Source: a virus (Duplodnaviria > Caudoviricetes). Taken from it: a DNA stretch of 64,000 nucleotides. The translations under genes and the position numbers were made by a program. Shown one piece after another: positions 12,686 to 64,000 of this stretch (position 1 is the first letter of the stretch; each line of letters opens with the position of its first letter). Under the pieces are notes generated by a model. The model was not told where the DNA came from. It saw nothing but the letters and a program-made list of their open reading frames with translations, and did no database searches. The stretch spans positions 1-64,000 of the IMG/VR virus record IMGVR_UViG_3300029288_000077. The stretch is one strand, 5' to 3'.

Positions 12686-12723
12686 TTCCGAAAGGAGTGC
12701 GGGTTCGAATCCCGCCCCAGGCA
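12643..12723 (+). tRNA. tRNA-Leu(CAA)
   Basis: acceptor GCCTGGG/CCCAGGC, anticodon arm CTACA-CTCAAAA-TGTAG, variable arm TCC-GAAA-GGA, GGTTCGAATCC. Confidence 0.93.
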
Positions 12724-12728
12724 TTGTA

Positions 12729-29763: not shown

Positions 29764-29837
29764 ACCCCCGTTGTCTAATAGGAGAAGACACCTGGCCTCT
29801 ACCCAGGTAACTGCGGGTTCGAGTCCTGCCGGGGGTG
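29764..29837 (+). tRNA. tRNA-Arg(TCT), atypical anticodon loop
   Basis: acceptor ACCCCCG/CGGGGGT, D stem GTCT/AGAC with A20, anticodon arm CCTGG-CCTCTAC-CCAGG, GGTTCGAGTCC. Confidence 0.75.
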
Positions 29838-29841
29838 TTGT

Positions 29842-29916
29842 GCACCGTTAGCTCAACTAGGTTAGAGCGCGTGGCTGTTAACCACGAGGTTGAACGTTCA
29901 ATTCGTTCACGGTGCG
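29842..29916 (+). tRNA. tRNA-Asn(GTT)
   Basis: acceptor GCACCGT/ACGGTGC, anticodon arm CGTGG-CTGTTAA-CCACG, T arm GAACG-TTCAATT-CGTTC. Confidence 0.95.
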
Positions 29917-30265
29917 TGTGGTTGCAATGAAACTGGCGGGTGTACTTCTGAAAGGCGGTACAATACGTGACCGATGTACCAGTAGTAAACATAAAAGTGG
30001 ATTTGCTTACATTGTTGTGTGCTGTTCAAGATTGTTGTCTGGGTGAGTACTCCAGGACAGGCGGTTTTTTGAAAATAAACAAGGATAATGAACTGCTCGA
30101 TGGATACCACAGGCTGGTGGAGTGTATGGTGCTGGGTGTAAAAGAATTGAGGTGTGAAGTAGGAAACGGTGATACTAATCCTGCAAGGGAGGAATTTATT
30201 GCAAAGCCGAACGACAGGTTTTGTGGTTTGGAAAGATATTATGATGCAAGTGTGCTTGAAGATGT

Positions 30266-33757: not shown

Positions 33758-34152
33758 AGCGCACCTTTTTCGTGTTGGTGCTGTTGGTATCTGCGCCATC
33801 TTATGCACAAGACGACATTCGAGTACAACAAATAGACGGAAAGAGTTTTGTGTGTTTCACAGAAGATGATGCCAAAGTGTTGTTGCAATTACGGTTAGAT
33901 TATCCTAAAATGAAAGAGAAAATACTTATCCTTGATGAACGAATAGAGTTAAAGAATAAAATGGTGATGTCACTTGAGGATGCCAATGAGTACCTAAACC
34001 AACAAAATGGGTTGCTTTTGAAAACCAACGCTGGATTGGAAGAAAAATTAGATTCTATGGATTCGTGGTATCGGTCTCCCATATTATGGAGCGTCGTGGG
34101 CGTTGTTATAGGTGTTGGCATCACTGTGGGGGTAATGTATGCAGTTAAATAA
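33754..34152 (+). CDS. signal peptide + coiled coil + C-terminal TM protein (spanin-like)
   Basis: MKRTFFVLVLLVSAPSYA signal; C-terminal hydrophobic helix. Confidence 0.4.
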   Translation: MKRTFFVLVLLVSAPSYAQDDIRVQQIDGKSFVCFTEDDAKVLLQLRLDYPKMKEKILILDERIELKNKMVMSLEDANEYLNQQNGLLLKTNAGLEEKLDSMDSWYRSPILWSVVGVVIGVGITVGVMYAVK

Positions 34153-34429
34153 GTACATCAAGTTGGCAGTTGGTGAATTAGAAGATAGAGTATCTGAGGA
34201 TGTGGCCAGAGAGGTTGGTGAAGCGATAGGGATTGATTGGGACGAAGTTGAATTTACACCCAAAGACCTGGCTGCTGGTATGATGGTAGAATTGGAGCAT
34301 GGATCCAAAGATGCTAATACGGACGTGACTGGTGATGATTTGGAGATGACTGCTAAGATAGCTTGGGCTCATCTAAAAGAATCTCCTAAATACTATAAAT
34401 TATTGGACAAGATGGAAAAAGATTTTTGA
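34139..34429 (+). CDS. DUF5661-like phage protein
   Basis: GM.VELEH...TAKIAWAHLKE.P.YY..L..ME. Confidence 0.7.
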   Translation: MQLNKYIKLAVGELEDRVSEDVAREVGEAIGIDWDEVEFTPKDLAAGMMVELEHGSKDANTDVTGDDLEMTAKIAWAHLKESPKYYKLLDKMEKDF

Positions 34430-45761: not shown

Positions 45762-47678
45762 GTGATGGGTGCTGCACTGAATATGAAAGATGGCCTGTTC
45801 CGTGACATAGATAATATCATAAATGGGGAAAGTATAAGTACTTTTACCAGTGTGGTGAATACTGGTTTAGTGACCCTCGAACGCCCACCAAATGAAGTAG
45901 TTTTTATAGAATCACCTAAATTTCTAAATGGCCCAAAGGAGCTGTGGCCAGAACAGTATAGGTTTACAAGAGACTTCTACGAGCTTAGTTGTCCTGTCTG
46001 CAATGACTTGGACAAAATGTACCGTGGTGGTGAAATTAAAAGAGAAGACGATGTACTGTTTGAGTATAATGTGTGTCCAAAATGTGGTGCTAGAAAAGAA
46101 GATGTTGTAGAAGCACTCAATTTTTATTATAGCATTAACGGTGTGGTGGGGATGCGTTCCGGTAAGTCTACTGGCATGGGGTGTTTTTTGGCTGCATTTA
46201 CTGCCGATATTTTGTGTGTACCTGATCTGCACAAAAAGCTGGGTATAGTTGAATCGGATGCTTTGGATGGCACGTTTGTGGCCGCTGCACAAAAGCAAGC
46301 TTCAGATACTATATGGAGCAAATTTAAGGGCATGTATGATAATAGTCCTTGGTTCCAGTACTACAAACATGCTTTGCTTGATATTGAGGTGAACGATAAG
46401 CGGTTTAGGCGCGGTGAGTTGTACTGGGAGACAGACAATCTCATACACTGGCAAGATAAACACATACGGCTTACTGCTGTGCCCACCAACTCAGCTACGC
46501 AGGCTGGACGCACGCGCATTTTTGCGGTGATAGACGAGCTGGCTAGGTTAGACTCAGGAGAAAGCAAGCGGTCTGCATCAGAAGTGTACCGCGTGCTTGA
46601 AAACTCATTGTACACTGTGCGTCAAGCTGTGTCTGAGTTGCGTGCAAAAGGCAATATAGAGATACCAGATGCTGTGATGGCTTCTATATCTTCCCCGTTG
46701 TTTCAAACCGACAAGTCTATGAGTCTGTTGGATGATGCTAAGATCGACAAGCGCATATATGCTTTCAAGAAGGCTACGTGGGAATTCAATCCACACTCCA
46801 AAAAAGAAGATTTTGCTTCATTATACGCACGCGATCCGATAGGCACAGAGCGCGATTTTGGTGCCAACCCGCCTGGAGCCGAAAACCCGTTTATTAAGGA
46901 CCCAAACATAATCAAGGCATGCACGGATTACAAGCGCACCTCGTGTTTTACTCTTAGAGAAAATTACTTTGATCTCAAAGCAGGAACAGAAGGTAATGAA
47001 GCTACATTCCATTTTGTGAAGATGGATATTTTGAATATGTCTTATATGAATTTAGCTGAGTACGTGATACACTGTGACCCAGGCGAAACCGGAGACAGCT
47101 TTTCACTTACACTAGCACACAAACAAGACGGTGTTTGTTGTATAGACGGTTACATAGAAATACGCCCGGTTCCGGAGGGAAGTCAATTTAGTAAAGTACC
47201 TCGTTCCGTACACTTTCCCTCAGTGGTGAATTTGATATTGGCTTTGCACAAAAAGATAAAAATCAGATTGGTGACATACGACAAATGGAATAGTACTGAA
47301 CAAATACACCGCCTCATAGATGCAGGTATTATAGCCATAGGTAAAAACCTGACCAGGGATGATCATCTAAATTTCCTGGAAGGTTTGAATAGTGGTTGGG
47401 TTAGTATGCCTGCACCGGAAGTAGAGGTAGCCGATCCTTCAAATATGAGAAATGTGCCGTGTGCCCAGGCACTGTATGAATTGAGTAAATTAAATGATAA
47501 TGGAGCAAAAGTAGATCACCCACCGTATGGTCACAACGACATTATACAGGGCGGGGTTGGGGTATACCGATCTTTGATGCATCCAGACCTAATACCAATT
47601 GAAAAGAAAAAGACCAAACAAACGTGGCAAAACCGACAGAAAGTGCCGCCAGTTACTTTAACCAGACTTAGACGTTAG
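45762..47678 (+). CDS. terminase large subunit
   Basis: Walker A GMRSGKST, Walker B IFAVIDELA, ISSP coupling motif, nuclease IHCDPG..GDSF, TYDKWNS, DHP..GHNDI. Confidence 0.88.
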   Translation: MMGAALNMKDGLFRDIDNIINGESISTFTSVVNTGLVTLERPPNEVVFIESPKFLNGPKELWPEQYRFTRDFYELSCPVCNDLDKMYRGGEIKREDDVLFEYNVCPKCGARKEDVVEALNFYYSINGVVGMRSGKSTGMGCFLAAFTADILCVPDLHKKLGIVESDALDGTFVAAAQKQASDTIWSKFKGMYDNSPWFQYYKHALLDIEVNDKRFRRGELYWETDNLIHWQDKHIRLTAVPTNSATQAGRTRIFAVIDELARLDSGESKRSASEVYRVLENSLYTVRQAVSELRAKGNIEIPDAVMASISSPLFQTDKSMSLLDDAKIDKRIYAFKKATWEFNPHSKKEDFASLYARDPIGTERDFGANPPGAENPFIKDPNIIKACTDYKRTSCFTLRENYFDLKAGTEGNEATFHFVKMDILNMSYMNLAEYVIHCDPGETGDSFSLTLAHKQDGVCCIDGYIEIRPVPEGSQFSKVPRSVHFPSVVNLILALHKKIKIRLVTYDKWNSTEQIHRLIDAGIIAIGKNLTRDDHLNFLEGLNSGWVSMPAPEVEVADPSNMRNVPCAQALYELSKLNDNGAKVDHPPYGHNDIIQGGVGVYRSLMHPDLIPIEKKKTKQTWQNRQKVPPVTLTRLRR

Positions 47679-48044: not shown

Positions 48045-49277
48045 TTGTCGTATCTAATCAGAAAAGCTATACTTTGTTTACAGGCAAAGTATGTAACGCC
48101 TCGTCAAAGTGATATCGATAAATTTCGAGATGACTTTCTTGTGCTTATGAAAAATGTCAAGCTTTTGAGCCCAGACGACAAAGAGACTGCTGAAGAGTTC
48201 AAGCAAATAGCCAATCGTTATACTGTGCAACTGCGTGGTTACTTGCAATCGCTGTTGAAGGCGATGGAAGAAAAGAAAACCTCTTTTGATTTGAATCAAA
48301 AACACCCTAAATTCTATCCGTATGTTTCTCGTGTTTGGGCACAAGTGCCATTTTACGTGAAGCAGTCTAAAGTGGTGTGGAGTTTTTTGCATGAATTGCA
48401 AGATTTGTACTATGGAGACGCATTGTCATCTTGGGCTTCGCGTACCAAGCGCAAGGCGCGGGCCGCTTGGAAGTGGTTTGAAACTGTCCTTTCATTTATT
48501 GACGAAAGACGTACTTCTGGCGGCACAGAAGATGATTTGAAGATGCAAGTCTTAGAAGAGGAGCTGGTTAGTACAGCAGGTTTCGATGTGCAATTGGTTG
48601 GATATGAAGATACAGAGAGCCATCAGAAGTGGTTAGGTATACTGCGCTCGGCTTTGAGGGTGTTTAAAGAAAAAGCCAACAAGGTGGTGCCGTGGATAGT
48701 AGAGTATGCTCTTCCTTTCCGAGTTGAGTTTTCATTTGAAAGAGGGTCTTCTGCAGGTGCCTACGGCTATTCAGGTACATATGAATATGACCACATCAAT
48801 GTTTACCCATGGTCTTTTGGTGACGTAAATAAGGTGGTGCACACTTTAGCGCATGAAATGGGCCACCACATGTTTAGGTCGATGTCTGCTGAACACGTAA
48901 AAGAGTTTACGGAATTGATGAAAGGTAACGAAGAGTGGGATCTCATGGAGCTGGTGCTGTTGTATGACGCAAACGCAGAAGAGTCAGAACTTGCTTTTGA
49001 ACAGCGCATCAAGTCACAGTATCCGGACATCTATTACAAGTGGATGGCGGCTGCCAACAAATATGAAGGATACAACTTTCATTTCATCCAAAAAGTGGTG
49101 GAATACTTACAGGGTGGCGGAGATCCGAAGGTAAACATACCATCTAAGATAGTCACACCATATGGCACCAAAAATCCAGAAGAAGCTTTCTGTGAAACTG
49201 TAGGTATGTTGGTGGCTTATGGATCACGCACTGTAGATGAAGAAGTAAGAGAACTATTCAAAAAGCTGAAACTGTGA
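48045..49277 (+). CDS. zincin metallopeptidase domain protein
   Basis: TLAHEMGHH and TPYGTKNPEEAFCE; start assigned to in-frame TTG 48045 after GGAG. Confidence 0.7.
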   Translation: MSYLIRKAILCLQAKYVTPRQSDIDKFRDDFLVLMKNVKLLSPDDKETAEEFKQIANRYTVQLRGYLQSLLKAMEEKKTSFDLNQKHPKFYPYVSRVWAQVPFYVKQSKVVWSFLHELQDLYYGDALSSWASRTKRKARAAWKWFETVLSFIDERRTSGGTEDDLKMQVLEEELVSTAGFDVQLVGYEDTESHQKWLGILRSALRVFKEKANKVVPWIVEYALPFRVEFSFERGSSAGAYGYSGTYEYDHINVYPWSFGDVNKVVHTLAHEMGHHMFRSMSAEHVKEFTELMKGNEEWDLMELVLLYDANAEESELAFEQRIKSQYPDIYYKWMAAANKYEGYNFHFIQKVVEYLQGGGDPKVNIPSKIVTPYGTKNPEEAFCETVGMLVAYGSRTVDEEVRELFKKLKL

Positions 49278-49868
49278 AGGAGAAGGTTTATGAACCCAAT
49301 ACAGTCCGCCATCAAGGCGCTGTCCGAAAGCAAACACATAGTACGTGGTATAGAAGTGGGTGATACATTAGTAGCAATCGATGATCATGTGGTGGGTGGT
49401 GGTCCTGGGCAGCCAGAGGTTTTTGTGTCTGCTGGTGAACATGTGCGTGTCAAAGAAATACACGATGCTTCAGTTACTGTAAAGTTGGTAGATCGCACAG
49501 AATTGGAAAAAGAGTGGGGCAAGTATGAAGTCAACCGCGTTGATTTAGATCTGTCTGATCTTGACCATTATGTGGATGCCAAGGTATACTAAAAGGAGTA
49601 ATTCGTGCCAGAGCTAGATACACCCTTTACCGATGATAACCTTTACTCCAGGTATAGGAGTGAAGTCATTAGGATTATCAAAAACAGTGTCTTTCCGGTG
49701 CTTGAACAGTATTTAGAAGAGTTAGCTGAGGATTTGGCTGAAGACGGTGCAACAGAAGATTCAGAGTATGTGGAAGAACTGCTTACGAACAACAGGTATC
49801 AATTAACCAGGGAGTACAAGAAGATACTAAAAACGTTGTTAGACTTTCCTGGGTTTGGAGAATAACGG

Positions 49869-50579
49869 TTGAAACGTGTGGCACAGTCTCCTGCTCTTTT
49901 TGATGCAGACGCTCGCTTAGATCCTGCTGTGCGTGAAGTCCTGTTGCAAATAGCTCAAGACATCTTAGATGCTTTAAATGAAGAGGGCGTGCACGTACCC
50001 CCGAAATTCCTGGTGCTTACCGGATCCATGACCGGTTTTGACTACAAAGAGACATCAGACATAGACTTGCATATAGGCTACGATCCGTTAGATTTTGAAG
50101 ATCCTCAAGCCGTAAAGCTGCTGTTCCGTTACTATCAGAAAAGTTTCAATGCAGAGCCGTATGATTTACGAGATCACCCCATTGAGTTGTATTTTCAAGA
50201 CGTGAACGAAGAGCACGTGTCGCCTGGCGTATATGATTTGATCAAGGATGCCTGGGTTAAATGGCCGGAGTCTCCTTCGTATATTAATGAAGAGGCTGTA
50301 GAAGAGTTTTATAATGGCACCACATATCTCATAGACAACTTCATCGTCGTTTATGAGCAGCAAAAGGGCAGCATGACCATGAATGATAGGAAGCGCTTTC
50401 TTTCAGACGTAAAGGCGTTGAAAGACTTTATACGGGAAAAACGGTCAGAAGGTCTTCACTCTCCTGCGGGCGTGTATTCAGTACAAAATCTTGGATTCAA
50501 GCAGCTCCGTGAGCACTTAGACTTAGATAACTTGAATGCACTGGTGCATCGAGTGCAAGACGATATCTATGAGGCATGA
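49869..50579 (+). CDS. pol-beta-superfamily nucleotidyltransferase
   Basis: LTGS...DY...SDIDLHI, PIELYFQD, GVYDL..D.W, R..GL...G.YS..NL.FK.LR. Confidence 0.8.
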   Translation: MKRVAQSPALFDADARLDPAVREVLLQIAQDILDALNEEGVHVPPKFLVLTGSMTGFDYKETSDIDLHIGYDPLDFEDPQAVKLLFRYYQKSFNAEPYDLRDHPIELYFQDVNEEHVSPGVYDLIKDAWVKWPESPSYINEEAVEEFYNGTTYLIDNFIVVYEQQKGSMTMNDRKRFLSDVKALKDFIREKRSEGLHSPAGVYSVQNLGFKQLREHLDLDNLNALVHRVQDDIYEA

Positions 50580-51322
50580 TGTTTGTATCAGCCAAATTGC
50601 GTAATGAGTTGAGGTCCGTAAAGGACCTGCTTACCATGTCTAACGCTGACAAGGGTTTTGATCTGGCTGTGATGGATCCAAACATGTTTCTTACCTGGTA
50701 CAGAAAAAATGTTGGTGAAGCAAACTTTGAGGATGAACAGCAGTTCATTGAAAGTTTGTATGCAACGGATAAATCGGTGTTAGGTAACTATTTCGATGAT
50801 GGAGATGTGCGGTACAGTTTGCTTAATGATCCTGATGCACCACCTTTTTTGTTTATGGACTTTGAAGAAGCTGTCTTTAATAAATGGATGATTCATTTTA
50901 CGGATAGTGCGTATAATGTGGCTTTGAAAGGCTTTAAATACGGCACACCAAATTTGGAGAGTTTGCCCTATACGAGACATACTCCACAGAAATATAAAAC
51001 GGGTGGGTATAACTTTGCGTATGATTTGGATGATCTGCACTATGCTTTTACGGGTAAAGGTACTAAGTATGGAAAAGAAGCGGTAATGTTTCAAGCTACT
51101 GGTATAAAAGTATATCATCACGGTGATGAAGAGCCGCAGGTAATATTTTGGGGTGAAACCGCCAGGAATTTTGTACCAATCCTTGTCAATGGTGATACAG
51201 ACGATTGGGCTGTTGGAGAAGACAAAGAAGGTTTTCCGGTATACCATCACGAAAGTTTAGATAAGGTCGTGGATTGGGTGGTAGCCAATTTCAATCAATA
51301 CAAGGGAGTCTTAATAGTATGA
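50576..51322 (+). CDS. possible ADP-ribosyltransferase-fold protein
   Basis: IHFT......KGF, GYNFAY, YG...V, DEEPQVIF spacing resembles ART fold; weak. Confidence 0.35.
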   Translation: MMFVSAKLRNELRSVKDLLTMSNADKGFDLAVMDPNMFLTWYRKNVGEANFEDEQQFIESLYATDKSVLGNYFDDGDVRYSLLNDPDAPPFLFMDFEEAVFNKWMIHFTDSAYNVALKGFKYGTPNLESLPYTRHTPQKYKTGGYNFAYDLDDLHYAFTGKGTKYGKEAVMFQATGIKVYHHGDEEPQVIFWGETARNFVPILVNGDTDDWAVGEDKEGFPVYHHESLDKVVDWVVANFNQYKGVLIV

Positions 51323-51636
51323 ATTCTGTACATCAAGCTATTCGAGTTTTGTCCCGTACTTTGTTTTGGGTAACTGATAAGTATGGATTTTTCACCACTG
51401 CAGTAGACAGCCTGGTAGCTGATCGAATCGTCAAGAGATTTGGACTTAATAAGGATCATGATTTTCACCACGCAGATCGTTACGAAGGTAAGGGCATGGA
51501 AGTCATGAAAGATAAAGGGAGTTGCCGCGTGACCGCCTACAATGAAAAAGCCAAGAGACTCATAGAGGATGTACTGTGATGTAGGTGTTGTGCCCACATC
51601 GGGTATAATAAACGTAAACGATAAGAGGAGATTGTA

Positions 51637-52476
51637 ATGTACCAAGTGAGATCAATGATTCAGGGCATCTTTTCCCTTTCGCTCGAACGTGGCGTGCTGA
51701 ACATGCAACCGGGACATATGTATGACCTGGAATTATACTGTTCTAGGCAGTGGATAGCAGAAAACCACATATTGAATAATTTACTCAATCGTGGTATAAT
51801 AAAAGTGACTTATGATTCTCAAAAGGATCCACACCCTAAGCACAATCTCAAGAATGCGGGGAAGAAAGTACAACCCGTGTTTGTGAGAAAAGAACAGTTG
51901 GAACCAAAACCACAGCCAAAGAAAGTACCTGTGCCGCAGGGGCGCGGCAATGTGACTATCATTGAATACGTGGATGGGAAGCGTGTAGACAAGGTGGACC
52001 CAGGTGATGCGGAGTGTGATGCTGTGGTACCTGAGGATTGGAATACACCTCCTGGAGTGGTGAAGGCATCAGACCAGCCCGAGGTACCAGCAAAGCCAGA
52101 GGAAGTACCTCCGGAGGTCAAGGAAGTACCGAAGACTGATCCTGTACCAGAGGAAGTGAAGATAGGCACGCCTGCGTTCGAAGGTGCGTTGAAAGATTTG
52201 GCTGACGAGGTGATTAAGAAGCAAGCCAACAAAATCTTGAAGAAGAAGATGAAGGAAGAGGCTTGGGAAAAGTTAGAGGAAGCGCACAAGGCAATGGACG
52301 AAAAGAAAGTCGAAGAGCCGATAGTGACTAGTGGTCCTATAGATGAGACACCGGTATTGACTGAGAGTTACTTGAATGAACTTTCCACCAAGGATCTCAA
52401 GAAACTGGCCAAAGAGCGTGGTATGAAGAGCAACTTGAAGAAGCAGGAATTGGTACAATCACTGATAGGAAAGTAG
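51637..52476 (+). CDS. Pro/Glu/Lys-rich protein with C-terminal Rho-N/SAP-like domain
   Basis: LNELSTKDLKKLAKERGM....KKQELVQSL. Confidence 0.6.
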   Translation: MYQVRSMIQGIFSLSLERGVLNMQPGHMYDLELYCSRQWIAENHILNNLLNRGIIKVTYDSQKDPHPKHNLKNAGKKVQPVFVRKEQLEPKPQPKKVPVPQGRGNVTIIEYVDGKRVDKVDPGDAECDAVVPEDWNTPPGVVKASDQPEVPAKPEEVPPEVKEVPKTDPVPEEVKIGTPAFEGALKDLADEVIKKQANKILKKKMKEEAWEKLEEAHKAMDEKKVEEPIVTSGPIDETPVLTESYLNELSTKDLKKLAKERGMKSNLKKQELVQSLIGK

Positions 52477-53483
52477 GTGTGACATGCCATTGGATCCTAA
52501 AACCAGGAAACTGTTGAGAAGCGTTGCTGAAGCGAGACGTGTGTTAGGTATCTTAGAAGAAGCTATCATGCACAATGAAATTACTGCTGGTGTATTAAAT
52601 CAGTACATGGATTTTGATGTGTTTGATAGAGAGGTTGATGGCATATTAGATGATGTTGCTGGGTGGATAAATGATGCATTTGAAGATATGTCTAGATCGG
52701 AGGGCTAATATGAAGTCTATAGACAAAGCGGTGCAAGTCATTGGACAAGAGCGCAGACACAGCATGCCTGCTAATATACCAAGTGGTTGGGACCAGGCTT
52801 GGCTGGCGGGGTTTTTGAAGGAAATAGAAGCGCACTATGATTCGGTGCAGGAGTTTCAAAGGAGCATAGATGCTGTGCTGCAAGAGTTAGACAGCAGTGA
52901 TGAAAGACTTGGTGTTGGAGCGTATTTGAAAAGTCTTATGGCTGCAGCCAGCAAGTTTGAGGATGCATTGGAAACTGCACACAATTTCTTGAACGTGGAT
53001 CCAGAACACACTGGTATACCTATAGACTGAGGTGTGTTGTGGGTGCTTACCTTAACAAAGCAGTAAAGGTTTTGAGCGGTGTTCCTGCCATACTGTATTC
53101 TCACCCCGAGATTCGGGATTATTACAGAAAAAATGATGAAAAGGTGGTTACTGCTTGGGGAGCTTTATCTGGGCCTGCACACGGCATGCGCATTTATGTA
53201 CAAACAAGGAGCCCAGAACGCATAGATACCTGGAGTCATGAGAAAGGGTTTTGGCATATCGTAGACACACGTAAAGTGGATGTGTAGTGTGGGTCTGCAT
53301 CGAGAGTTTGTGGTATCTGAACCATGTGGGCCTGGTGGATATGACTGTGCGTGCTGTTACGATGGTAGGTCCGGTAAGCGTGGTGCCAAGAAACACAAGC
53401 GTTGTAACCATGCGCGTAAAAGTGGTTTGAGACAAAGAGCAAAGCAAGAAACTGCACGAGATACACTTTGAGATCGGATCGAA

Positions 53484-54239
53484 ATGCTTTCTGAGTCACA
53501 AAAAGGTATCACCAAGGATGAGTTGATCCTCATCTATGAACTCATGTACAAGTGGGGTATGATACAATCTTATGAGCGTGAACATGGGTATTTACCAGAT
53601 CATGTGCTGCGATATGCCACGAAGATAGAGTCTGATCTTAGGTTTCACATAAAGCAAGGATTAGAAGCACTCATAGAAGCATGCGAGGCGTGGATAGAAT
53701 ATCACACATTTGACCAAGATGGTTGGTATGTGGACATTTTAGAAATTGATTCATTGAAAGAACAGATCAAACACGCTATGGCAACTTTGTTGATAGACAG
53801 GCACGATGTACTGAAGGTCATAAAAAAGCTGATACCTGTGTACTTAAATGGATATAATGAAAAAGACCTGTGGTCGATAGTGCATCAATTAGAAGATGAA
53901 ATAAAAGCTATTCATAAAGAGTTTTTTTATGAACTTTCTGAAGATGAGTATAAACACTGGATGAATCACCCAGTAGTTAAATCGATAGTGCACATGAAAA
54001 ATAGCTTACAAATACATACTGATGATTTAGGTGATTTAGTATCTGCTTTTAATAGAGGAGTGTCAACAGCACACCACCACGGTCAATTAGGTGAGTATAT
54101 TTTGAAAGACTCCGGTCCACAAATTTTTGATGATCTCTCTTCAGGCAAGTACACAGGACAGTGGGACAAAGACTTGGAAAAGATCTTAGGTAGGAAAGTG
54201 TCAACCTTAATCCTCGCTGCTATAAAGGAGCTGACCTGA
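53484..54239 (+). CDS. hypothetical protein, paralog of 57699..58493
   Basis: shared W...HTF, H..G...E.IL, DDL....Y, LG.KV.T motifs. Confidence 0.6.
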   Translation: MLSESQKGITKDELILIYELMYKWGMIQSYEREHGYLPDHVLRYATKIESDLRFHIKQGLEALIEACEAWIEYHTFDQDGWYVDILEIDSLKEQIKHAMATLLIDRHDVLKVIKKLIPVYLNGYNEKDLWSIVHQLEDEIKAIHKEFFYELSEDEYKHWMNHPVVKSIVHMKNSLQIHTDDLGDLVSAFNRGVSTAHHHGQLGEYILKDSGPQIFDDLSSGKYTGQWDKDLEKILGRKVSTLILAAIKELT

Positions 54240-54479
54240 TCATGGACATCGATGTCGTTTTGTTTGAAAATCTGGGTAAAAATGGAGATCTAGAGAGCCT
54301 GGAGATAAATTATTGCATTGGAAAGAGAGAGGCTACGCTATATTTAGACAAAGATGAAGTCGATGGTTTATATCGATTGCAGCAGTGTGATAAAATAGAC
54401 GAGTTAGAAGATGTGCAAGTAAAAGATACTATTTATGAAGAAGTGTTGCACTACGTAGAAAACATGAAAGGGTAAAGAC

Positions 54480-54980
54480 ATGAACTGGTTGAAAAAAGCA
54501 GTGGGTGTATTGGGTGTGGATATGCACGATAAATTCAGACAGAACGTTGAAAGCGGTAAGTGGTTGATAATGAAAATACCACTCTACGCTCGTCGTTTTC
54601 TGGATAACAAACTTGGTAAATTATTTCCATATTATGCTAGTGAACGTCCACAACTGCCTTCTGCTGGAAAACCAGTTACATCGTGGACCCTACCAAGTGG
54701 TTCTAGTGTTCCGTGTCTGGTATTTTTGCCAGGAGACGAAGACATAGCTATGCAATACTTAGATGAGGCCAAGAAATCCCGAACCCAAGAAACCGAAGAG
54801 GGTGCGATTGGGGCAGTTGATAGGGCAATTGCTGTATGGGAACAAAATGGTCCCTTTTTACTAAAAGAGATAACTAATGCTGGGGACACAAAAATAGTAG
54901 CACAGGAACTGCGCAAAGCGGGGTTTGAAATGCGTGCTCTTCCAATGTATGGCAGCCCTAGAGTGTGGTATAAAAGATGA
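54480..54980 (+). CDS. hypothetical protein with MNWLKKA leader (cargo X)
   Basis: ORF; first 20 nt identical to ORF 55155. Confidence 0.6.
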   Translation: MNWLKKAVGVLGVDMHDKFRQNVESGKWLIMKIPLYARRFLDNKLGKLFPYYASERPQLPSAGKPVTSWTLPSGSSVPCLVFLPGDEDIAMQYLDEAKKSRTQETEEGAIGAVDRAIAVWEQNGPFLLKEITNAGDTKIVAQELRKAGFEMRALPMYGSPRVWYKR

Positions 54981-55072
54981 TTATCAAGGCGCAAGAAGTC
55001 CTTCCAGTCAACGTGGCTATCACTGATACTACTCAGTTGCAAGACGTGTTTGAGAGCAGTGTGGTAAAATAG
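54977..55072 (+). pseudogene. truncated copy of the 5' end of gene 55456
   Basis: MIIKAQEVLPVNVAITDTTQLQDVFE then early stop. Confidence 0.8.
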
Positions 55073-55154
55073 ATGAGTTAGAAGATGTGCAAGTAAAAGA
55101 TACTATTTATGAAGAAGTGTTGGCTTATACTGAAAACATGAAAGGTAAATTGAC

Positions 55155-55454
55155 ATGAACTGGTTGAAAAAAGCCATTGAAGAAATGGACAAATATGCTG
55201 ATTTGTTTGTGGTGTCATACGTTGTTAGAGATCCTGAGCGCGGAAATAGAAACAGTGGTGCTTACTTAGTGCGTGCCAAGTCTAAGCTGGACGCAATTCA
55301 AGTAGTAAAAAACATAGCAGAGGATTATTTTAGGGTTTCTGCCACACCGGCTGATAAATACTACCGAGATGATTATGATAGCGTAGAAGAGGCTCTAGAG
55401 GGCAAGAAATTACCTGCAATGAATAAATACCTTCTCCTGTACAGTGGTACATAA
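55155..55454 (+). CDS. hypothetical protein with MNWLKKA leader (cargo Y)
   Basis: ORF; body unrelated to 54480. Confidence 0.6.
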   Translation: MNWLKKAIEEMDKYADLFVVSYVVRDPERGNRNSGAYLVRAKSKLDAIQVVKNIAEDYFRVSATPADKYYRDDYDSVEEALEGKKLPAMNKYLLLYSGT

Positions 55455-55455
55455 A

Positions 55456-56928
55456 ATGAAGATTTCAGCGCAGGAAGTCCTTCCAGTCAATGTGGCTATC
55501 ACTGATGTCACTCAGTTGCAAGACGTGTTTGAGCTGTCTTTAGATGAAGCCATGAATTTAGCTATGTCCAATACCCGCAACGGTATCTTGAATACTGCGT
55601 GGTATGAAGGCATCTTGGCCAAGTTGGGTGAAATTGAACGCGATGCATTTACGCTAGGTTTGGCTTCGGCTGGTGTACAAGTCATCAACGAAGTAGAAGA
55701 GCTGCCCATACAAGCCAACGACGTAAAAGTGCAGGTCATAGACACTTCCACCAACAAAGTGATAGAAGAAACTACTGGTGACAACCAGGAAGAGCAAAAG
55801 TTCAAGGATTTGACAAATAAGTATCCTGACAAGAATAAGAATGTGGTGCAAGTCGTAGACAATACCACCAAAAAGGTGATGAAGTCTAACGCCAGCCTTG
55901 GGTATAATGCCCTTCAAGAAAAAATACTTATAGCTACTGACAAGCTGTCTGTGCTGAAGCGGGCTGGTAAGTCCGTGTCTTTAGAAGAAGTAGATGTCAT
56001 CCTGGGCGACCTACCTGGTTGGGCCGTGGAATGTGTACGTGATAGAGTAAAAGACGTAAAAAAAGACGTGCGCAAGAACAAGAGACAGGTCCATAAGACT
56101 GACAGAGAAGAGTCTGATTACCAGAAAGATGTGAGGAAGATCATGCAAAAGCCGAACATAAAAGACGTAAAAGGTGGCAGAGATGACGGGTTGAGCGCCG
56201 GTACCCGCAATGCCTTGATGATCATTGAGAATGATAAGAAATTTTTGGACCTGGCACTTAGTATCATTGCAGATGGTGGTTGGGAAAGTGAATTGTTCAA
56301 GGCTTTTGATGATGTGGTGGGCGGCAATTTACCAGCGTATGCGCGCAGTAGTGTGGTGGACTGGAAATTCGTAGCAGAGTATCTAAGGAAAGAATGCTCC
56401 ACATCTTTGTTTGAGGAGGATGCTTGTGATGTGAAGCGCATGGAACCAGGCAGGGACGAGTGGCACCACGGCGCTCTAGACGTAGATGCTGATCATCTTG
56501 AGCAGGAAAAGCGCGAGCTAGAAGATATAGTGATGAAGCGTCAAGATGAACTACCTAATTGGAAGAAACTGCTTGATAAAATCAAGAGAGCACTGTCTAT
56601 CTCTGAGGTACGTGAAGTGTGGGACGACGTAAAAGACACGGCTACTATAGCTGAAAGTGAGGCTTGTGACATGACTGCAAAGAGAGCGCAATTGGAAGAG
56701 GATCAAGAAGACTTTGATGAGGGTGAAGACTTGAAGGAGACTGACCCAGAGACTTGGATCGCTGAGAGTTACATCAATGGCAATTTGCAAGACATCAAGC
56801 ATGAGTTGAAGAGCATGCAGCCTATGGAAGCCATTTCATTGGCCATAGCTGCCTATTACTACCTGTTGGACATGGATCGCAAAGAGGCCGGTGCCTACTT
56901 GCGCTGGCTCATGAGGACAGGCGCTTGA
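55456..56928 (+). CDS. multi-domain acidic hypothetical protein (putative internal virion protein)
   Basis: MKISAQEV start; internal KRAQ. Confidence 0.5.
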   Translation: MKISAQEVLPVNVAITDVTQLQDVFELSLDEAMNLAMSNTRNGILNTAWYEGILAKLGEIERDAFTLGLASAGVQVINEVEELPIQANDVKVQVIDTSTNKVIEETTGDNQEEQKFKDLTNKYPDKNKNVVQVVDNTTKKVMKSNASLGYNALQEKILIATDKLSVLKRAGKSVSLEEVDVILGDLPGWAVECVRDRVKDVKKDVRKNKRQVHKTDREESDYQKDVRKIMQKPNIKDVKGGRDDGLSAGTRNALMIIENDKKFLDLALSIIADGGWESELFKAFDDVVGGNLPAYARSSVVDWKFVAEYLRKECSTSLFEEDACDVKRMEPGRDEWHHGALDVDADHLEQEKRELEDIVMKRQDELPNWKKLLDKIKRALSISEVREVWDDVKDTATIAESEACDMTAKRAQLEEDQEDFDEGEDLKETDPETWIAESYINGNLQDIKHELKSMQPMEAISLAIAAYYYLLDMDRKEAGAYLRWLMRTGA

Positions 56929-57698
56929 TAGTACGTGCTTCACAAGTCTTGGGTGCTGGCAAGAGGTTTTTGCTATATGCACATCTTACTTTGACAGGCA
57001 GAGCACCCAAAGTGTTGAAGGTACTTAGTGAAGAGCAACGTGATGGATATGTAATCAGAAAAGAGATGTGGGACACAGCCGGTCTTGTGCCAGAGCCCAT
57101 GGAGATGATTACGTGTTACACACCGTCTGGTGATTGGATAGGTGAGGAAAAGACAGCCAAATTTTTGGTAGAAGAGATGGGCATAGCTCCTGAACTGTCA
57201 GACCCAGATCATTCAGTGTGCAGCACAGGATTTTGTGCCAAAGAAAATAGATGGTACGGGTGGTCACACCGCGCCATCCACGGATTTGGTGTAGGTGATA
57301 AGTTTGAAGAGTGGTACCCAGAAGGCGGAGTTGAAGGTAAAAAGATAGAAACACTAGAAGAGGCAAGGGCTGCTGCTAAAGCCTTTGCTGAATCAGTAAG
57401 CTGAGGTGTTGTATGAGTTCCTTTCACATTGAAAATCTGAAAGAAGATTTGCAGTATTTTACTAGGGAGTTCAAAAAAGTGATGTCACAGGTAGATGCTG
57501 CATCGCACACCTTAGATCAAGTGATGAGCGAAGTGAATAACAGCATCGGGCATGCAAATAGATATGAGACACAAACACGTAGCATGCAAGAGTCAAGGGA
57601 GATAGCCCACTTTTCTGAGAAGTTAGAGACTTTGGCCCTGCAAATGGACCGTGTAGCTAAATTACTTGACGATGCTGTATTATCTACGGTAAAATGAT

Positions 57699-58493
57699 AT
57701 GATGGTATTGGGCGCATACGGTGATCCTATAAATCAACAACAGTTTGTTTCTTTGTGTGAGCGTGCAGACGAGTTGCATGCTAAGCTGGGTTACGCTTAT
57801 GTCATCAAAAGAAAGACTGGGTGGTTGTCAGATTCAGCTATGTCTTATGTTGGTAAGATGGAGCAAGAATTAGATTTAACATTAAACCAGATCTTTGACT
57901 TGGTGAAGGAATCATTAGATATGTGGGTGGATTTTCATACATTTGAAGGATCGTTAGAACACATACTGGGTGGTGTCGCGTCTGGATTAGATGCTGAATA
58001 CTGGTACAATCAATTTACTGAGTGGGTGGGGTCACAACCAGCACTGGACAGACTCATTTATTCAGCCACCAAGCACACAGAATCACATGCCACGTGGGCG
58101 TATGAATCTTTTGATCATGCCTTTAATAAAGATAAAAATACATTCATCAAGATTTGGAAGCGGGTATACCCGTATTTTATGAAAAGCTACCCAAGCCTAA
58201 ACAAAGCTTTGGTCAATACACAAAACGTGTTATCAGAAATGCAGTCTCCTCCCGCAGATTTGATGGATAAGGCTGCTTTATACCAAAAGTTTATGAATCT
58301 GGTACATTCTACTGGCCCAATGTTAGAGCACATACTTGAGGATGATAGCATGGCCAGGAAAGTGATGGATGATTTAGCACACAATCGTTATATAAACGAT
58401 ACTGAGTGGAAGAAGGAAGTAGAAAATAAGTTGGGGAGTAAAGTGGCTACTAGGTATCTGGTGTTGGCAATAAACGTGTTGGGTGAAACATGA
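57699..58493 (+). CDS. hypothetical protein, paralog of 53484..54239
   Basis: shared motifs with 53484..54239. Confidence 0.6.
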   Translation: MMVLGAYGDPINQQQFVSLCERADELHAKLGYAYVIKRKTGWLSDSAMSYVGKMEQELDLTLNQIFDLVKESLDMWVDFHTFEGSLEHILGGVASGLDAEYWYNQFTEWVGSQPALDRLIYSATKHTESHATWAYESFDHAFNKDKNTFIKIWKRVYPYFMKSYPSLNKALVNTQNVLSEMQSPPADLMDKAALYQKFMNLVHSTGPMLEHILEDDSMARKVMDDLAHNRYINDTEWKKEVENKLGSKVATRYLVLAINVLGET

Positions 58494-58975
58494 AAAAGCC
58501 GATTGAAAAGGTAGATCCTGTGGAAAAACACTTCCTCAAACAGGCCGCTAAAGCCACAAAGCTGTCCACAGTACGGGCTTGTATTGAGGTGGGTGGGTGT
58601 CAAATACAAGCCTTTGTGGCCGAGACACAGCTACAAAAACAGGCCGGTCTAAGTGTATTGGCTGCACTAGGCAACTATGAAGGTATGTACTTTCCGTTCA
58701 AGGAAAGACAGTCAGTCACTTTTCACATGGGTGGTGTGAAGTTTCCCATAGACATCATATTTTTGACCAAAGATGATGAGCACAACTATATGAAGGTGGC
58801 TAGAATTATTAGTGATGTGGAACCAGACGATAAAGAGAGCTGGACAGAAGAGGCGGATGCCGTGTTAGAGGTGGGTGGCGGTCTGTGTGCATCGCACGGT
58901 ATAGGCATCGGAGATGCATGTAAGATCAAGTACTCTGTGTCCGAAACATACGCTGGTAGCGTATCAACACTGTAG
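58490..58975 (+). CDS. DUF192 domain protein
   Basis: VAET......GL, GMYF.F, FHM..V.FPIDIIFL, VLEV.GG....GI..GD. Confidence 0.8.
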   Translation: MKKPIEKVDPVEKHFLKQAAKATKLSTVRACIEVGGCQIQAFVAETQLQKQAGLSVLAALGNYEGMYFPFKERQSVTFHMGGVKFPIDIIFLTKDDEHNYMKVARIISDVEPDDKESWTEEADAVLEVGGGLCASHGIGIGDACKIKYSVSETYAGSVSTL

Positions 58976-59096
58976 TTATACTACACTGTGCAAGATTGTA
59001 GTATAATCATACCTATAAAACTCGTTGGTTAATAGCCTCATCCTCCAACCCAGTACAATATAAGGCGCGTATAACCTTACCAAGAGGTAGGATTCT

Positions 59097-60368
59097 ATGA
59101 AAGTACAAGCCCAAGAAGTCATAGACCAGCCGATGTTTCCGCTCGAAGAGGAGCACCCTCTTGAAGATGTGGAGGGCGTCTCTGTTGAGCCCAACGAAAT
59201 CACTGAAGACAGTGCACTGACTATAGCCAAGACTTATTGGATGATGGGCTACAACTGGTTAGAGATAGAGATGCTGCTAAAGGATCGGCACTACCCAGAG
59301 TCTATGATATCCAAGGCCGTGAAAGCTGCACAAGCGTATGCCAAAGAGATGTTGTCCAACGGACCGTTTGCTGGTGCTGTTAATGGGCAATACGTCAAAC
59401 TCAAGAATGGTATGTGGGGTGTGGCTGCGCAGCTTACACCCAAACAGGCTGTGTTGACTCTTGAAGATGGCACCAAGCTAAAGACCGAGATCGAGCACAT
59501 AGACGTAGAAGCTACCAAACTGTTGGCTGAATCATTCAAGTTACGTAAGCAGGCCGAACTCATCCTTAATGCCATCCCCAAAGAGTACGTGATACCGGAG
59601 ATGGAGGGGCAACCTGACATGGAGGTTGACCCAGACATACAAGAGTCTTACAAAAGTCTTGTTCAAGAGCGCGCCCCCGCTGGCTGGTCTGAGATCTCGC
59701 CTGAAATCGGTGAGGCTGAACCGGTACATGCTGTGTTGCATAATGTCATCAACAACCTGGAGGGACTGCGGGCGCTGAAAGATGAATTGCAAAAGAGCAT
59801 CAAGAAAGTCAAGGACGAGCAGTTGATGCCGTTGCAGGAGCAGTTCAAGGCCCTGGCGGGCGACGAACAGCAAGAGTTGAGAAACGCTTTCATGATCGTG
59901 GAGCAAATGGAAGACGGTTTGAGTGAAATAGATAAGACGATCTTTAGGGACTATGAAGGTGAGTTGGTGGGCTTCCAGAACAAGATAGTGGAAAATCCGA
60001 TGCCGCCCACCGTGGCTGATGAGTTAGATGCCCTAAAGAAAATCATTGCAGAAAATCATAAAAAGATAGCTCCTGGAATCTTTGCAGCTTTAGAGCAATT
60101 TATGGAGGCCAACACCAAGATTGAGCGCGAACTGCAAAAGACGTTTGCTAAGTACCCGTACCGCAAGCGTCCGAAGAAGGGGCAGTTGGTGGAGAAGGTA
60201 ACTGGTTGGTTCAAGGGCTTGTGGAAGTCTTTGTCAAAGACCATCACTGGTCTTTACGAGACGGTACTCCCCGAGGCAGAAGAGGCCACGGAAGCCGTGC
60301 AAGAGATGAACAGGCAGCTCGATAGCTACCTGAAGACTGCTGCTGTCAAGAAAATCGTGAAAGGGTAA
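59097..60368 (+). CDS. coiled-coil hypothetical protein, probably abundant (putative head/core protein)
   Basis: 423 aa, strong C/G-ending codon bias, MKVQAQEV start. Confidence 0.45.
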   Translation: MKVQAQEVIDQPMFPLEEEHPLEDVEGVSVEPNEITEDSALTIAKTYWMMGYNWLEIEMLLKDRHYPESMISKAVKAAQAYAKEMLSNGPFAGAVNGQYVKLKNGMWGVAAQLTPKQAVLTLEDGTKLKTEIEHIDVEATKLLAESFKLRKQAELILNAIPKEYVIPEMEGQPDMEVDPDIQESYKSLVQERAPAGWSEISPEIGEAEPVHAVLHNVINNLEGLRALKDELQKSIKKVKDEQLMPLQEQFKALAGDEQQELRNAFMIVEQMEDGLSEIDKTIFRDYEGELVGFQNKIVENPMPPTVADELDALKKIIAENHKKIAPGIFAALEQFMEANTKIERELQKTFAKYPYRKRPKKGQLVEKVTGWFKGLWKSLSKTITGLYETVLPEAEEATEAVQEMNRQLDSYLKTAAVKKIVKG

Positions 60369-63300
60369 AGACATGAAGTCACTAGTAAAAGCAATAAGAG
60401 TGTTATCAGGGACACAAACACTAAAACAGTGGATTGGTAATACTACTTCTGAAAAATATAGTATCCCTGCTGGTGAAGCACCGTCTTCCGCGCCCAAAGA
60501 TCCGAAAGATGCTGCATATAAATTGATGACTAAAGATGAAATTTTAAAAACATTTGATGGAGATGCACAAGGCAACCTCGATTTGAATTACGATAGGTGG
60601 ATCGCTGCAGATGATTCTGCTAATGCACCCAGTGTCATATACCAAACTCAGGGCAGAGATAAAACCGGTGCTTTGAACAAGCGTGCTAGTAGAGACAGCA
60701 AAGAGTGGGAGAAGTGGGAGTTTTTGAAAGAAGTGATGGGTGTTGAAGCCCTGTTATATGAAGTGTTGATAGGTATGAGCAACAAAGAAGCTGAGGATAT
60801 GATTGAGTGGATAGCTCGTATGCATGACATCCACGATCCAATACTGGGTGATGAACCAGAAGAAGATGAGGCTGAGGAAGAGGAAGACACCGAAGACGAG
60901 GAAGAGTAACATGGATCGTGATGCGCTAAGACAGCACATCCTCAAGCATTGGGATGACTTGCAACACGCAGAGTTGAATCTCAATACACCTGAGATTTTA
61001 GAGTGCATATTGACTCACGGCAGTGAGACATCTTTGAATCAATTAGAGTCTGAGGTGGAGTTTGCTTTGACTGAGTACAGTGACGTGATGAACGGAGCAT
61101 GACATGGATAGGGAAGCTGCTGATGTAAGAAGAAAGCTCGAAACTTTGTTTGATAATTATGCAAACAAACTGCTTGATTATAGGGATAAGGTAGAAGGAA
61201 TTGAAAATAAAATAGATAATGATGCTGAAGATTTAGACGAAAAAATACTTGAATTAGAGGCTGCAATAGATTCAGATGATGCAGACGCAAAAATTGTAAT
61301 TAAAGAACTTCGAAAATTGGTGAAATTGTTTAGTAAGATGGAAGACGGTGTGTCTAATCTTGTGGTAAAAGTAGACAATCTGTTTAGTGAGCTGGGGTGG
61401 TAGATCCTTGAGTGCTCCTATAAAATACAAGATTTATACTTTAGACGAAGACGGTAAGTTGCGCTTTAAGAAAAAGGGTAACGGCTTGTTTTATGTGCCT
61501 GAGGTGAACAAGTCAGTGGTGGACATAGGAGATCATATCACACTTGATTTAGGTGATACACAGATATTTATAGAGTTAGCATCATTCAAGGCGGTGTGCG
61601 CTGCTTTTATGAACAAGAAAGAGACGAAGAAAAACATAGTACAATTGAAAGTCGTAAATGGAGGAAAGACATGAATTTTATAGCGAAAGCTGTTGATGTA
61701 TTAGCTGGTTCGAAAGAGAAGCAATTGATCAACAAAATTGTCAAGAAAATTGATGGTGAATTTGCCAGGTATCTGTGGTCTGATTTGTGGACTCACTTTG
61801 ATGAGGAACAAATAGAGGAGTATGCTGACAAATTTGGCATTAAATACACTGGTAACCCCTCTGAAACTATTGATATGATTAGTGGTAAAACTTCTGACGA
61901 TGAAATAAAACAAAACCTAAAGGAACTGTTGACTAACATCTATGATTTAGATATGTTGGTGGCACTGTGGGGAGATGTGGGTGGTGATGTGGAACAGTAT
62001 GAATCACAAACTGTGATAAACTTAAAAAAGGAACTGGAAGACATTGGTGTTCCTGTTAAAAATGTCTATTTAAGTGATGATGCAAGTGCAAGGTTTTCCA
62101 ATTCTTTTTACATAATAATAGATACTGTAGCTGATACAGAAACTTTATCAAAAATAAAAGATTTTGTGCGCAACTTAGATGGAAATGCAAAATTTAAGGA
62201 AATCGTGTACAACAATAAACCTGCTAAAGAGGGTGAATATTACCGTTTAGTGTGTGATATTAATAAGAGTGCAATGAAAAAATTGAAAATGCGAGGAGGT
62301 CTTCTATGAAGCTGTATTACGATGTCATCTCGAAGATGTACTCTTTGGAGACTGAGCAGGGACCTGAATTCCTGGGTCCCTTTGCTCATACCCTGCTCAA
62401 GTTGAAGCAGGCTGGTTTGACTGAAGACCAGTCACGTGAAGCCGTGCTCAAAGCCATGTTTGGCTACGGTCGAGCGATTTGCTTAGACGCTGTTATAGCT
62501 GATAATTTAGTGGGTGGGTTGAAAGCCGTACATAATCATACGTACGGAAAGGACAAGGCTGATGAATAACTATCTGTTCCGTGCAATCGCTCAGTTGAAG
62601 GAGTATGTAAGTCCAAGTGTAAAGACACAAGTACCTTTTACTATATCAGAAGAACATCCGCTACCAGTACAAGTGTTACCTAAGGATGAAGAATGCATAC
62701 TAAAATTTATAAATAAAGAAGAGTGCGAAGGTGAGTATGTTACGTCAAGAAGAGACAGCATAGGAACACTAGAATTGTTGGTTGATGGGTGGCACGTAGC
62801 ACAATGGTACCGTCGTAAGATACTTACTGTACCACCAGACACCGAATTAGAGGGTTATCAAAAGAAAGTGGTGGATTTTTTGAAGGAAGTAGGGGGACTA
62901 CGTGTAAAGGACTGGAGAAGCGTTAAAGAAGAAAGCCCCGGCCAGCAAATACCATATTATATGGGCATGCAGTTTGATAGATCGCTAAATAAACGCAGTG
63001 CACAGAACATAATGAACAGCATACTGCGCAATTTGCCGGATGGGTTTATGGTGTATAAGGGCAGAGTCGATTACGGACCGTGGGATGGAAAAGTATATAC
63101 TTTATACGATAAGATACTTGCTTCTGTTATTGGTGTACTTGTTCGTAAAGATAGTAAGCATAAAATAAAGGAATTTATGAATGCAGTTAACTCTATGGAT
63201 GGTGTAACTGAAGCATACTTACTTAGAGACATAGATCACAACATGCTTGATGTGTGATTTATAATATGATAGCAGGTAATTTAATTGGGTGTTTCAAAGC

Positions 63301-64000
63301 AGTACACAATGAGACGTATGGAAAGGAGGAGAGTGATGAATGAGGCACTTGCACTAATAAGAAAGGTAATGTCACGTTACAGATCTTTCTTTGCGGGTGA
63401 ACCCGAAAGGGAATTGGCTGCTCAGGCAAATGATTATTTGGAAATTATACGTGCTGATTTTGAAGATATGGGTAAAGAGCAATTAATAAACAAAATCATG
63501 GAATTGTATGCTATTTATGATCCTGATTTCATTAAACAGCAAGTAAGAGAAATGATTGCTGACGTAAAGGGAGATATAAAATACGATCAATATGAGGAAA
63601 ATCAACGCAAAAAGAGAGACAGATTTCTGGCACCATGATTTTTCTTTCTTCCATATTGATTTCTAAGGACAAGCGAGTCATCTTTGATGCTCCTTGCAAT
63701 ATAGCTGCTGGAGTGCTGTTCAACCCTGTTTGTGAGTACTCTGGTTTGAAAGACTGTGCTGAGTGTTGTGAAAAGATGAAGAAGGATTGGTTATTGCAGA
63801 CGATAGTTTGTAGTAGGAAAGAGCTGTTTTATCAAGCATAAGGATAAAATACGTGGCAGACAAGGATAAGAAAAAGCCCACCAACAGCAGCGCTATCATA
63901 GTTAAGGCCAGTGATTTTAGGGACAACCCTGACGAAGGCAAGATTGAAGGCCAAAAGGATATGGTTTATGGTCGATACCGAAGCATAGCCAGTGTCAATC

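Follow-up and report, generated by a model that had tools for sequence, protein, structure and literature searches.

A short amphipathic peptide shared by otherwise dissimilar proteins encoded among the head genes of an uncultured phage: a candidate capsid-targeting signal

Why would proteins that have nothing else in common begin with the same short peptide? This question is raised by a window of 64,000 nucleotides (the whole stretch of DNA analyzed), which corresponds to the first 64 kb of C2, a 183,765-bp contig of an uncultured phage (IMG/VR record IMGVR_UViG_3300029288_000077). An original prediction, made from the sequence alone, had noticed a common amphipathic peptide at the N termini of ten proteins encoded downstream of the terminase gene and had proposed that it loads a variable set of proteins into the phage head. 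We refer to this peptide as the tag and to the proteins that bear it as carriers; genes are named by their first position (Table 1). C2 was binned with nine other contigs (1.08 Mb in total; bin G000, completeness rating 97.55%), and its genes lie on the plus strand almost throughout. The analysis revealed that the tag is real, enriched, portable across proteins and lineages, and located among head genes in C2. As to its function, we tentatively favor a capsid-targeting signal of the type known from phage T4, to which we assign a probability just short of even.

The tag and its distribution

All ten N-terminal peptides were found at the starts given for them. The start codon is TTG in 48045, GTG in 53039, and ATG in the remaining genes, the latter with Shine-Dalgarno-like sequences upstream. 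The tag follows the consensus [ILV]-x-[KRQ]-A-[IV]-x-V-L-[SGA]-G, in which the Ala occupies residue 5 to 10. The leader comprises 10 to 12 residues and corresponds to an amphipathic helix of approximately 11 residues with charged residues within it and a mean hydrophobicity of 0.24; the mean helical hydrophobic moment of the tags was 0.50, compared to 0.30 ± 0.16 over all N termini of the contig. The features of a Sec, Tat, or lipoprotein signal, namely, a hydrophobic core of at least 10 residues and a signal peptidase site, are absent from the leader.

A pattern search at N termini returned 10 matches among the 289 genes of the contig, compared to 0.94 expected. A profile made from the ten peptides was then applied in a six-frame scan of the whole bin, independent of gene calls, in which matches of at least 12 bits were considered strong. 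On C2, 16 of the 20 strong matches were start proximal, i.e., 0 to 5 residues past a start codon, whereas this was the case for 1 of the 18 strong matches on the other nine contigs (1.08 Mb). Six start-proximal matches were outside the set used to make the profile (56925, 65723, 66433, 67415, 68324, and 87563; Poisson P ~3e-8). The ten genes listed first, these six, and 86980 bring the number of carriers on the contig to at least 17. These carriers cluster, since they account for 17 of the 39 genes at 47.7 to 69.4 kb and 85.9 to 88 kb and for 0 of the 250 genes elsewhere (Fisher P = 4e-17); because the interval bounds were chosen with knowledge of the carrier positions, this P value is descriptive and does not constitute an independent test. 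All 17 copies adjoin terminase, portal, protease, or capsid genes. A match at contig position 178637, at the N terminus of a ribonucleotide-reductase-like protein, was discarded as a false positive. A degenerate DNA pattern encoding M-[KN]-x-hydrophobic-x-K-A-[IV]-x-V-L-[SA]-G gave no match in IMG/VR.

The original prediction had also stated that the remainder of each carrier is different, and this holds: after the first 16 residues had been trimmed, no pair of carriers matched at E < 0.005 in BLAST. The only clear paralogy in the window is that between 53484 and 57699 (blastp E 1e-14), and on the contig there is a weak one between 66433 and 67415. Searches with PHROGs (30 proteins from the window part of the block) and Pfam (8 of the larger ones) gave almost no assignments, the exceptions being the peptidase motif of 48045 and the DUF5661 domain of 34139. 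The latter gene lies outside the block, where a copy of the motif had likewise been claimed, and it proved to carry a genuine N-terminal tag that is also present on its orthologue in a relative.

The tag had furthermore been described as position independent. C-terminal matches of at least 10 bits numbered 3, compared to 0.26 expected (P ~0.002). The two C-terminal cases named at the outset, 53484 and 57699, both exist, but they are mutual paralogues, so they amount to one event. The C-terminal motif of gene 26279 is conserved: a small protein encoded 5' of a response-regulator gene (window positions 26282-26491) ends in YIEKAIRELV, and that of the relative (L014, 3717-3917) ends in FIYKAIIGLLR. 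Internal matches were at background level except for two cases with an internal Met, and the internal motif claimed for gene 32789 was at chance level. Several tags are found in frame within longer open reading frames (ORFs). Carriers 66433 and 86980 each continue the frame of an upstream ORF, with no intervening stop. In P0223 and P0224, the closest homologues of the 48045 peptidase, the peptidase is followed in the same frame by a 51319-like unit, whose tag is internal and comes after A-N-E-M; in P0224, the N-terminal part of a 53484-type protein is also fused to the peptidase. In a relative (L015, gene 6012), a 62562-type tag lies inside a 348-amino-acid protein. Position independence is therefore weakly supported by the three C-terminal matches and the internal in-frame copies, although the internal copies still begin with Met.

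Selection on the peptide and exchange of leaders

Is the tag preserved as DNA or as peptide? Over the 17 copies, the invariant Ala is encoded by GCT (6 copies), GCA (5), GCG (4), and GCC (2), both codon families are used for Leu and likewise for Ser, and codon identity at residue-matched positions is only 37%. The residue pattern is thus preserved although the codons are scrambled, which indicates that selection acts on the peptide. The tag is kept by selection at the protein level.

A few copies nevertheless arose by recent duplication of DNA, as seen from two boundary repeats in the block (Table 1). The left repeat contains the 3' end of gene 54242, a ribosome-binding site, and the first 7 codons of the tag (MNWLKKA), and it recurs 674 bp downstream. 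Copy 1 of the right repeat is a remnant that corresponds to the beginning of gene 55456 and reads MIIKAQEVLPV. Since both flanks recur, one gene slot (54381-55533) was duplicated in tandem, and its copies now hold different genes, 54480 and 55155. This slot duplication, in which the first seven tag codons were kept, recalls the internal-protein loci of T-even phages, which are hypervariable between conserved flanks and in which only the capsid-targeting sequence (CTS) is conserved (PMC3012670). The remnant is nearer to the version found in a relative (MIIKAQDVLSV) than to the N terminus of the live gene 55456 (MKISAQEVLPV).

Leader exchange is clearest in the family of carrier 48045, which comprises about 60 HExxH peptidase-like homologues (P0223-P0283) from large phage contigs. 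In this family, a conserved core, LRKDFLTLMKN, is preceded by alternative leaders: RVAARF/Y in 15 or more members, YSYDR in 7 to 9, and the C2 type in 3, while a few members have no leader. On a 490-kb phage contig, leaders of the RVAARY and YxYDR types also head other small proteins nearby. An AlphaFold2 model of 48045 has a mean pLDDT (predicted local distance difference test score) of 88, and its leader helix (residues 2 to 12) one of about 50; a fold search of this model against the PDB gave no match at E <= 0.001, and the weak top matches were mostly zinc peptidases. The second informative family is DUF5661. The orthologues of 34139 in close relatives are tagged (MNFLRKAILHLTS and MNDLKIAIHLVS), and among the 27 homologues compared, most, including those on bacterial-size contigs, begin at the domain, the leader being confined to close relatives. 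In the AlphaFold2 model of 34139, the domain has a pLDDT of >90 and the tag helix one of 48 to 78. Judged from these models, the leader looks like an appendage rather than a part of the fold.

Comparison with related phages shows gain and loss of the tag. Homologues of the C2 portal delimit a large uncultured clade. Many of the portal genes in this clade (P0003, P0025, P0034, and others) encode ~1000 amino acids with intein and LAGLIDADG domains. The following observations can be made. (i) In relatives with a portal identity of 62 to 67% (L007 and L008), 4 to 5 genes each are tagged. These include the 55456 homologue (MIIKAQDVLSV), a 258-amino-acid protein, the DUF5661 orthologue, and a 237-amino-acid protein encoded 3' of the portal gene (MTKLIIKAVDILG). 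(ii) The tag was retained in two orthologue pairs, namely, DUF5661 and 86980 with L008 22733 (51% identity). The L007 orthologue of 60373 (47% identity over residues 50 to 159), however, has neither the tag nor the 45-residue linker. (iii) In relatives with ~55% portal identity (L006 and L009 to L012), the interval from terminase to portal consists of only 4 to 5 genes without tags. That of L006 contains homologues of the untagged genes 51637, 55456, 58520, 59097, and 62306, with an exonuclease gene closely 3' of the portal. No homologue of any tagged protein was detected in the 21-kb portal-centered locus of L006, which extends from the terminase to past the portal. Since this locus keeps the untagged core, the tagged proteins are lineage-specific additions. 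(iv) The motif was found neither in these five relatives nor in Rctr197k (portal identity 37%). In Rctr197k (KX853510; locus L004, 13120-19647), the terminase-to-portal interval is filled by one frame of 2175 codons with a single in-frame stop, annotated as misc_feature and not as coding sequence; the same interval in C2 holds about 30 genes.

The position of the block directly downstream of the terminase gene, which formed part of the initial claim, was found in C2 but is not conserved. L015 is a contig that shares its sample with L007 and probably represents the same phage; in it, the homologues of 47753, 48045, 49869, 50579, and 53484, with a putative counterpart of 49290, are located elsewhere than between terminase and portal. 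This counterpart, a gene of 121 amino acids in the syntenic part of L015, bears a similar tag (MKPINTAIQCLG). Portability itself is supported, given the peptide-level selection, the dissimilar carriers, the two tagged orthologue pairs, the untagged orthologue of 60373, and the swapped leaders of the peptidase family.

A possible capsid address and its alternatives

C2 encodes the machinery that a CTS requires, namely, a prohead protease, an adjacent scaffold-like protein, and a capsid protein of the phage G type. A capsid profile made from the C2 protein and six relatives matches the capsid protein gp27 of phage G (6WKK, E 5e-40). The gp27 chain deposited in 6WKK begins near residue 86 of the C2 protein, just past a conserved Glu. 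This suggests that the C2 capsid protein has an N-terminal propeptide of ~85 residues, if the start of the deposited chain is taken as the mature N terminus, and this propeptide is perhaps cut after the conserved Glu by a Glu-directed protease. The nearest records of the phage collection by portal were Rctr197k (37% identity), phage G, and jumbo phages of Erwinia and Dickeya; a megablast search of the tagged block and a tblastn search of the core proteins 59097 and 55456 against this collection retrieved nothing. Judged by these similarities, the phage is akin to phage G and not to T4.

In T4, a CTS of ~10 residues heads the internal proteins IPI, IPII, IPIII, and Alt and is the sole shared part of this fast-evolving set (PMC3012670). 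The C2 tag resembles it in several respects: a short N-terminal peptide is common to 17 carriers that show no similarity past residue 16; the cargo loci vary while leader and flanks are kept, as in the slot duplication, tagged genes are missing from the L006 locus, and L009 to L012 have no tagged N termini; and C2, like T4, encodes a prohead protease and a scaffold or scaffold-like protein. The differences are that the T4 leader is terminated by an (L/I)-x-E cleavage site, none being conserved after the C2 tag, and that C2 has at least 17 carriers, with some copies internal or C terminal. The T4 leader, MKTYQEFIAE, also differs from the tag in sequence. In the phiKZ-like phage SPN3US, N-terminal propeptides occur on many internal head proteins, among them two short ones of 20 and 24 residues; they are cut by gp245 after A-x-E, and a targeting role was suggested for them by the authors by analogy to T4 (PMC10052503). 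Unlike the C2 tag, these propeptides were reported to share a cleavage motif and not a leader sequence, and no cleavage motif is evident in C2. Encapsulins, which are not known to have a portal, scaffold, or protease, use short cargo-loading peptides at either terminus to dock unrelated cargo on the inner face of an HK97-fold shell; these peptides are rich in Gly and Ser and extended rather than helical, unlike the C2 motif. The Dar antirestriction proteins of phage P1 are loaded into heads through their N-terminal regions, in a hierarchical manner that depends on specific partner proteins and is not known to rely on one shared short motif.

Under the reading as a capsid address, the leader would be a single amphipathic helix with a Ser/Gly cap, placed on fast-changing accessory proteins that are encoded among head genes. 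The helix would dock the carriers into the prohead during its assembly, either at the scaffold core or at the inner face of the capsid. Once packaged, the carriers could reach the host cell together with the DNA, and their leader might be trimmed by the prohead protease. We infer the binding partner in the prohead, packaging and ejection, and trimming of the leader from the gene neighborhood, the presence of protease and scaffold, and the analogy to T4. A number of observations weigh against this reading. (i) No cleavage site is conserved past the tag, and Glu does not recur at a constant spacing from it; 13 of the 17 carriers have a Glu among the 10 residues that follow the tag, which is no enrichment over the ~59% expected by composition. 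(ii) The tag profile gave no match to any of four head proteins (portal, capsid, scaffold, and protease). (iii) PF03420, the Pfam family of the T4 gp21 protease, had no match in the genome, so the prohead protease of C2 belongs to a different family. (iv) The argument from the head-gene neighborhood is valid for the C2 phage only, since many of these genes are remote from the head genes in the L007/L015 relative. (v) In-frame copies inside longer ORFs are not predicted by a strictly N-terminal signal. Mimicry of a helix in the N-terminal extension of the protease, the N terminus of the scaffold, or the capsid propeptide was also considered; some likeness was visible by eye, but the profile scores were at background level, and the idea was rejected.

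That Ala-rich amphipathic N termini are simply common, so that the motif arose by chance, would fit single weak matches elsewhere, such as that at contig position 178637, but is practically excluded by the excess of start-proximal matches on C2 over the 1.08-Mb control and by the held-out matches. A signal at the mRNA level, i.e., a favored initiation region, weakly structured and with a second codon rich in A, on highly expressed late genes, would account for Asn or Lys as the second residue in 11 of the 17 carriers and for GAAAGG(G)T upstream of the start in several of them. Conservation nevertheless extends to codon 12 and operates at the residue level, with four Ala codons and both families of Leu and of Ser codons in use, and C-terminal and intra-ORF copies cannot be initiation regions; we therefore consider such a signal very improbable. 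The helix might alternatively be the first element of a mobile module that was spread by boundary duplication or recombination and has no addressing role, serving at most as an interdomain linker or a site for cutting a polyprotein. The tandem slot duplication with both flanks kept, the alike boundary DNA at 54480, 55155, and 60373, the in-frame internal copies at module junctions (66433 and 86980; P0223, P0224, and L015 6012), and the single 2175-amino-acid ORF of Rctr197k across the terminase-to-portal interval all fit this idea. It is unlikely, however, since DNA likeness is confined to a few recent copies and codons are scrambled over the 17 copies with the residue pattern kept, the tag persists on orthologues that were relocated in the genome (DUF5661), and recombination alone leaves the preserved hydrophobic face unexplained.

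More serious, if still rather doubtful, is the alternative that the helix is a docking handle for another shared partner, which could be a modifying or unfolding enzyme of phage or host, a chaperone, a membrane, or a host target. The evidence for portability is silent on the identity of the partner, tagged genes occur outside the head module in a relative, and the peptide, being a basic amphipathic helix, could bind a membrane as well. On the other hand, all 17 copies flank head genes in C2, the tag has neither the length nor the hydrophobicity of a Sec or Tat signal, and the PHROGs and Pfam searches described above found neither a modifying enzyme nor a chaperone whose occurrence follows that of the tag, although the genes at 65.7 to 69.4 kb were searched in part and divergent enzymes could escape detection. 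In accordance, these searches, together with a few downstream genes, revealed beside the tagged genes no maturase or modifying enzyme like those of ribosomally synthesized and posttranslationally modified peptides, with the same proviso for divergent ones.

Should the capsid address be true, ~6% of the phage genes would encode packaged proteins, including a zinc peptidase along with numerous small proteins of acidic character, and the carriers would be attractive candidates for effectors that disable the host upon entry. The tags would also provide short labels for loading foreign proteins into capsids, and a cargo family with lineage-specific leaders would allow cargo sets to be read from sequence in uncultured phages. 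If the partner is a different one, the leader would still point to a previously undescribed hub to which many accessory proteins connect. A wider generalization, which we consider possible but somewhat unlikely, is that several lineages of large or huge phages each use their own leader, that cargo families such as the HExxH peptidase and DUF5661 have swapped leaders in passing from one lineage to another, that the label works at polyprotein junctions, and that a rapidly diversifying set of enzymes and small acidic proteins is loaded into the capsid and delivered along with the DNA, which would make this a general and evolvable delivery system and not a peculiarity of T4.

Genes of the block and other features of the contig

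The features on which the analysis is based are compiled in Table 1.

Table 1. Tagged genes, core genes, boundary repeats, and head genes of contig C2 (positions in the window unless marked as contig; aa, amino acids)
Feature	Position	Strand	Tag or terminus	Remarks
Tagged DUF5661 protein	34139..34429	+	MQLNKYIKLAVGELE	Outside block; PF18905, E 7.7e-15, residues 23-94
Large terminase subunit	45762..47678	+		phrog_17415, E 4.7e-65; 59% identity to L007 terminase; left border of tagged block
Tagged protein, 410 aa	48045..49277	+	MSYLIRKAILCLQ	TTG start; HEMGH zinc-peptidase motif
Tagged protein, 100 aa	49290..49592	+	MNPIQSAIKALSE	21.1 bits
Tagged protein, 86 aa	51319..51579	+	MNSVHQAIRVLSR	Profile match
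Tagged protein, 106 aa	52710..53030	+	MKSIDKAVQVIGQ	Profile match
Tagged protein, 82 aa	53039..53287	+	MGAYLNKAVKVLSG	GTG start; 25.8 bits
Protein, 251 aa	53484..54239	+	LILAAIKELT (C terminus)	Paralogue of 57699
Left boundary repeat (family D1)	Copy 1, 54381..54499; copy 2, 55055-55174	+		90% identity over 91 nucleotides
Tagged protein, 166 aa	54480..54980	+	MNWLKKAVGVLG	Profile match
Right boundary repeat (family D3)	Copy 1, 54965..55054; copy 2, 55444-55533	+		84% identity over 90 nucleotides
Tagged protein, 99 aa	55155..55454	+	MNWLKKAIEEM	In duplicated slot
Core protein, 490 aa	55456..56928	+	MKISAQEVLPV (tag-like; L007, MIIKAQDVLSV)	Kept in relatives
Tagged protein, 159 aa	56925..57404	+	MIVRASQVLGAG	TTG start; 14.5 bits, start proximal; absent from original prediction
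Protein, 264 aa	57699..58493	+	YLVLAINVLGET (tag-like, C terminus)	15.2-15.5 bits at extreme C terminus
Untagged core protein, 423 aa	59097..60368	+		41% identity to L007 6408; 33% to L006
Tagged acidic protein, 178 aa	60373..60909	+	MKSLVKAIRVLSG	26.4 bits; closest to consensus
Tagged protein, 212 aa	61671..62309	+	MNFIAKAVDVLAG	Profile match
Tagged protein, 231 aa	62562..63257	+	MNNYLFRAIAQLKE	N terminus like that of contig gene 65723
Portal	Contig 63853-65730 (window part 63853..64000)	+		phrog_16240, E 1.2e-79
Further carrier	Contig 65723			
Further carrier	Contig 66433		MNMKGAINKAIEVLAE	
Further carrier	Contig 67415		MSNIAKAIEVLAG	
Further carrier	Contig 68324		MKKMIVKAIDMLS	
Head maturation (prohead) protease	Contig 81604-82464			phrog_18299, E 5e-30
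Scaffold-like protein, 467 aa	Contig 82535-83938			Between protease and capsid genes
Conserved protein, 231 aa	Contig 83974-84669			
Major capsid protein	Contig 84710-85843 (locus L013, 3710-4843)			
Further carrier	Contig 86980		MIVKAINIVS	
Further carrier	Contig 87563		MIVKAIEVLS	

Two further features of the contig were noted. Five tRNA genes (Tyr, Ile-tat, Leu-caa, Arg-tct, and Asn) are dispersed in the early region (window positions 2308-2391, 10474-10547, 12642-12724, and 29763-29917). Three paralogous ORFs of 362 to 412 amino acids are located at contig positions 88003-89241, 140590-141678, and 169611-170750, the first of them directly 3' of the tagged gene 87563; this ORF starts with a KIRLYPN motif, which we take to be similar to TnpB-type transposon proteins.

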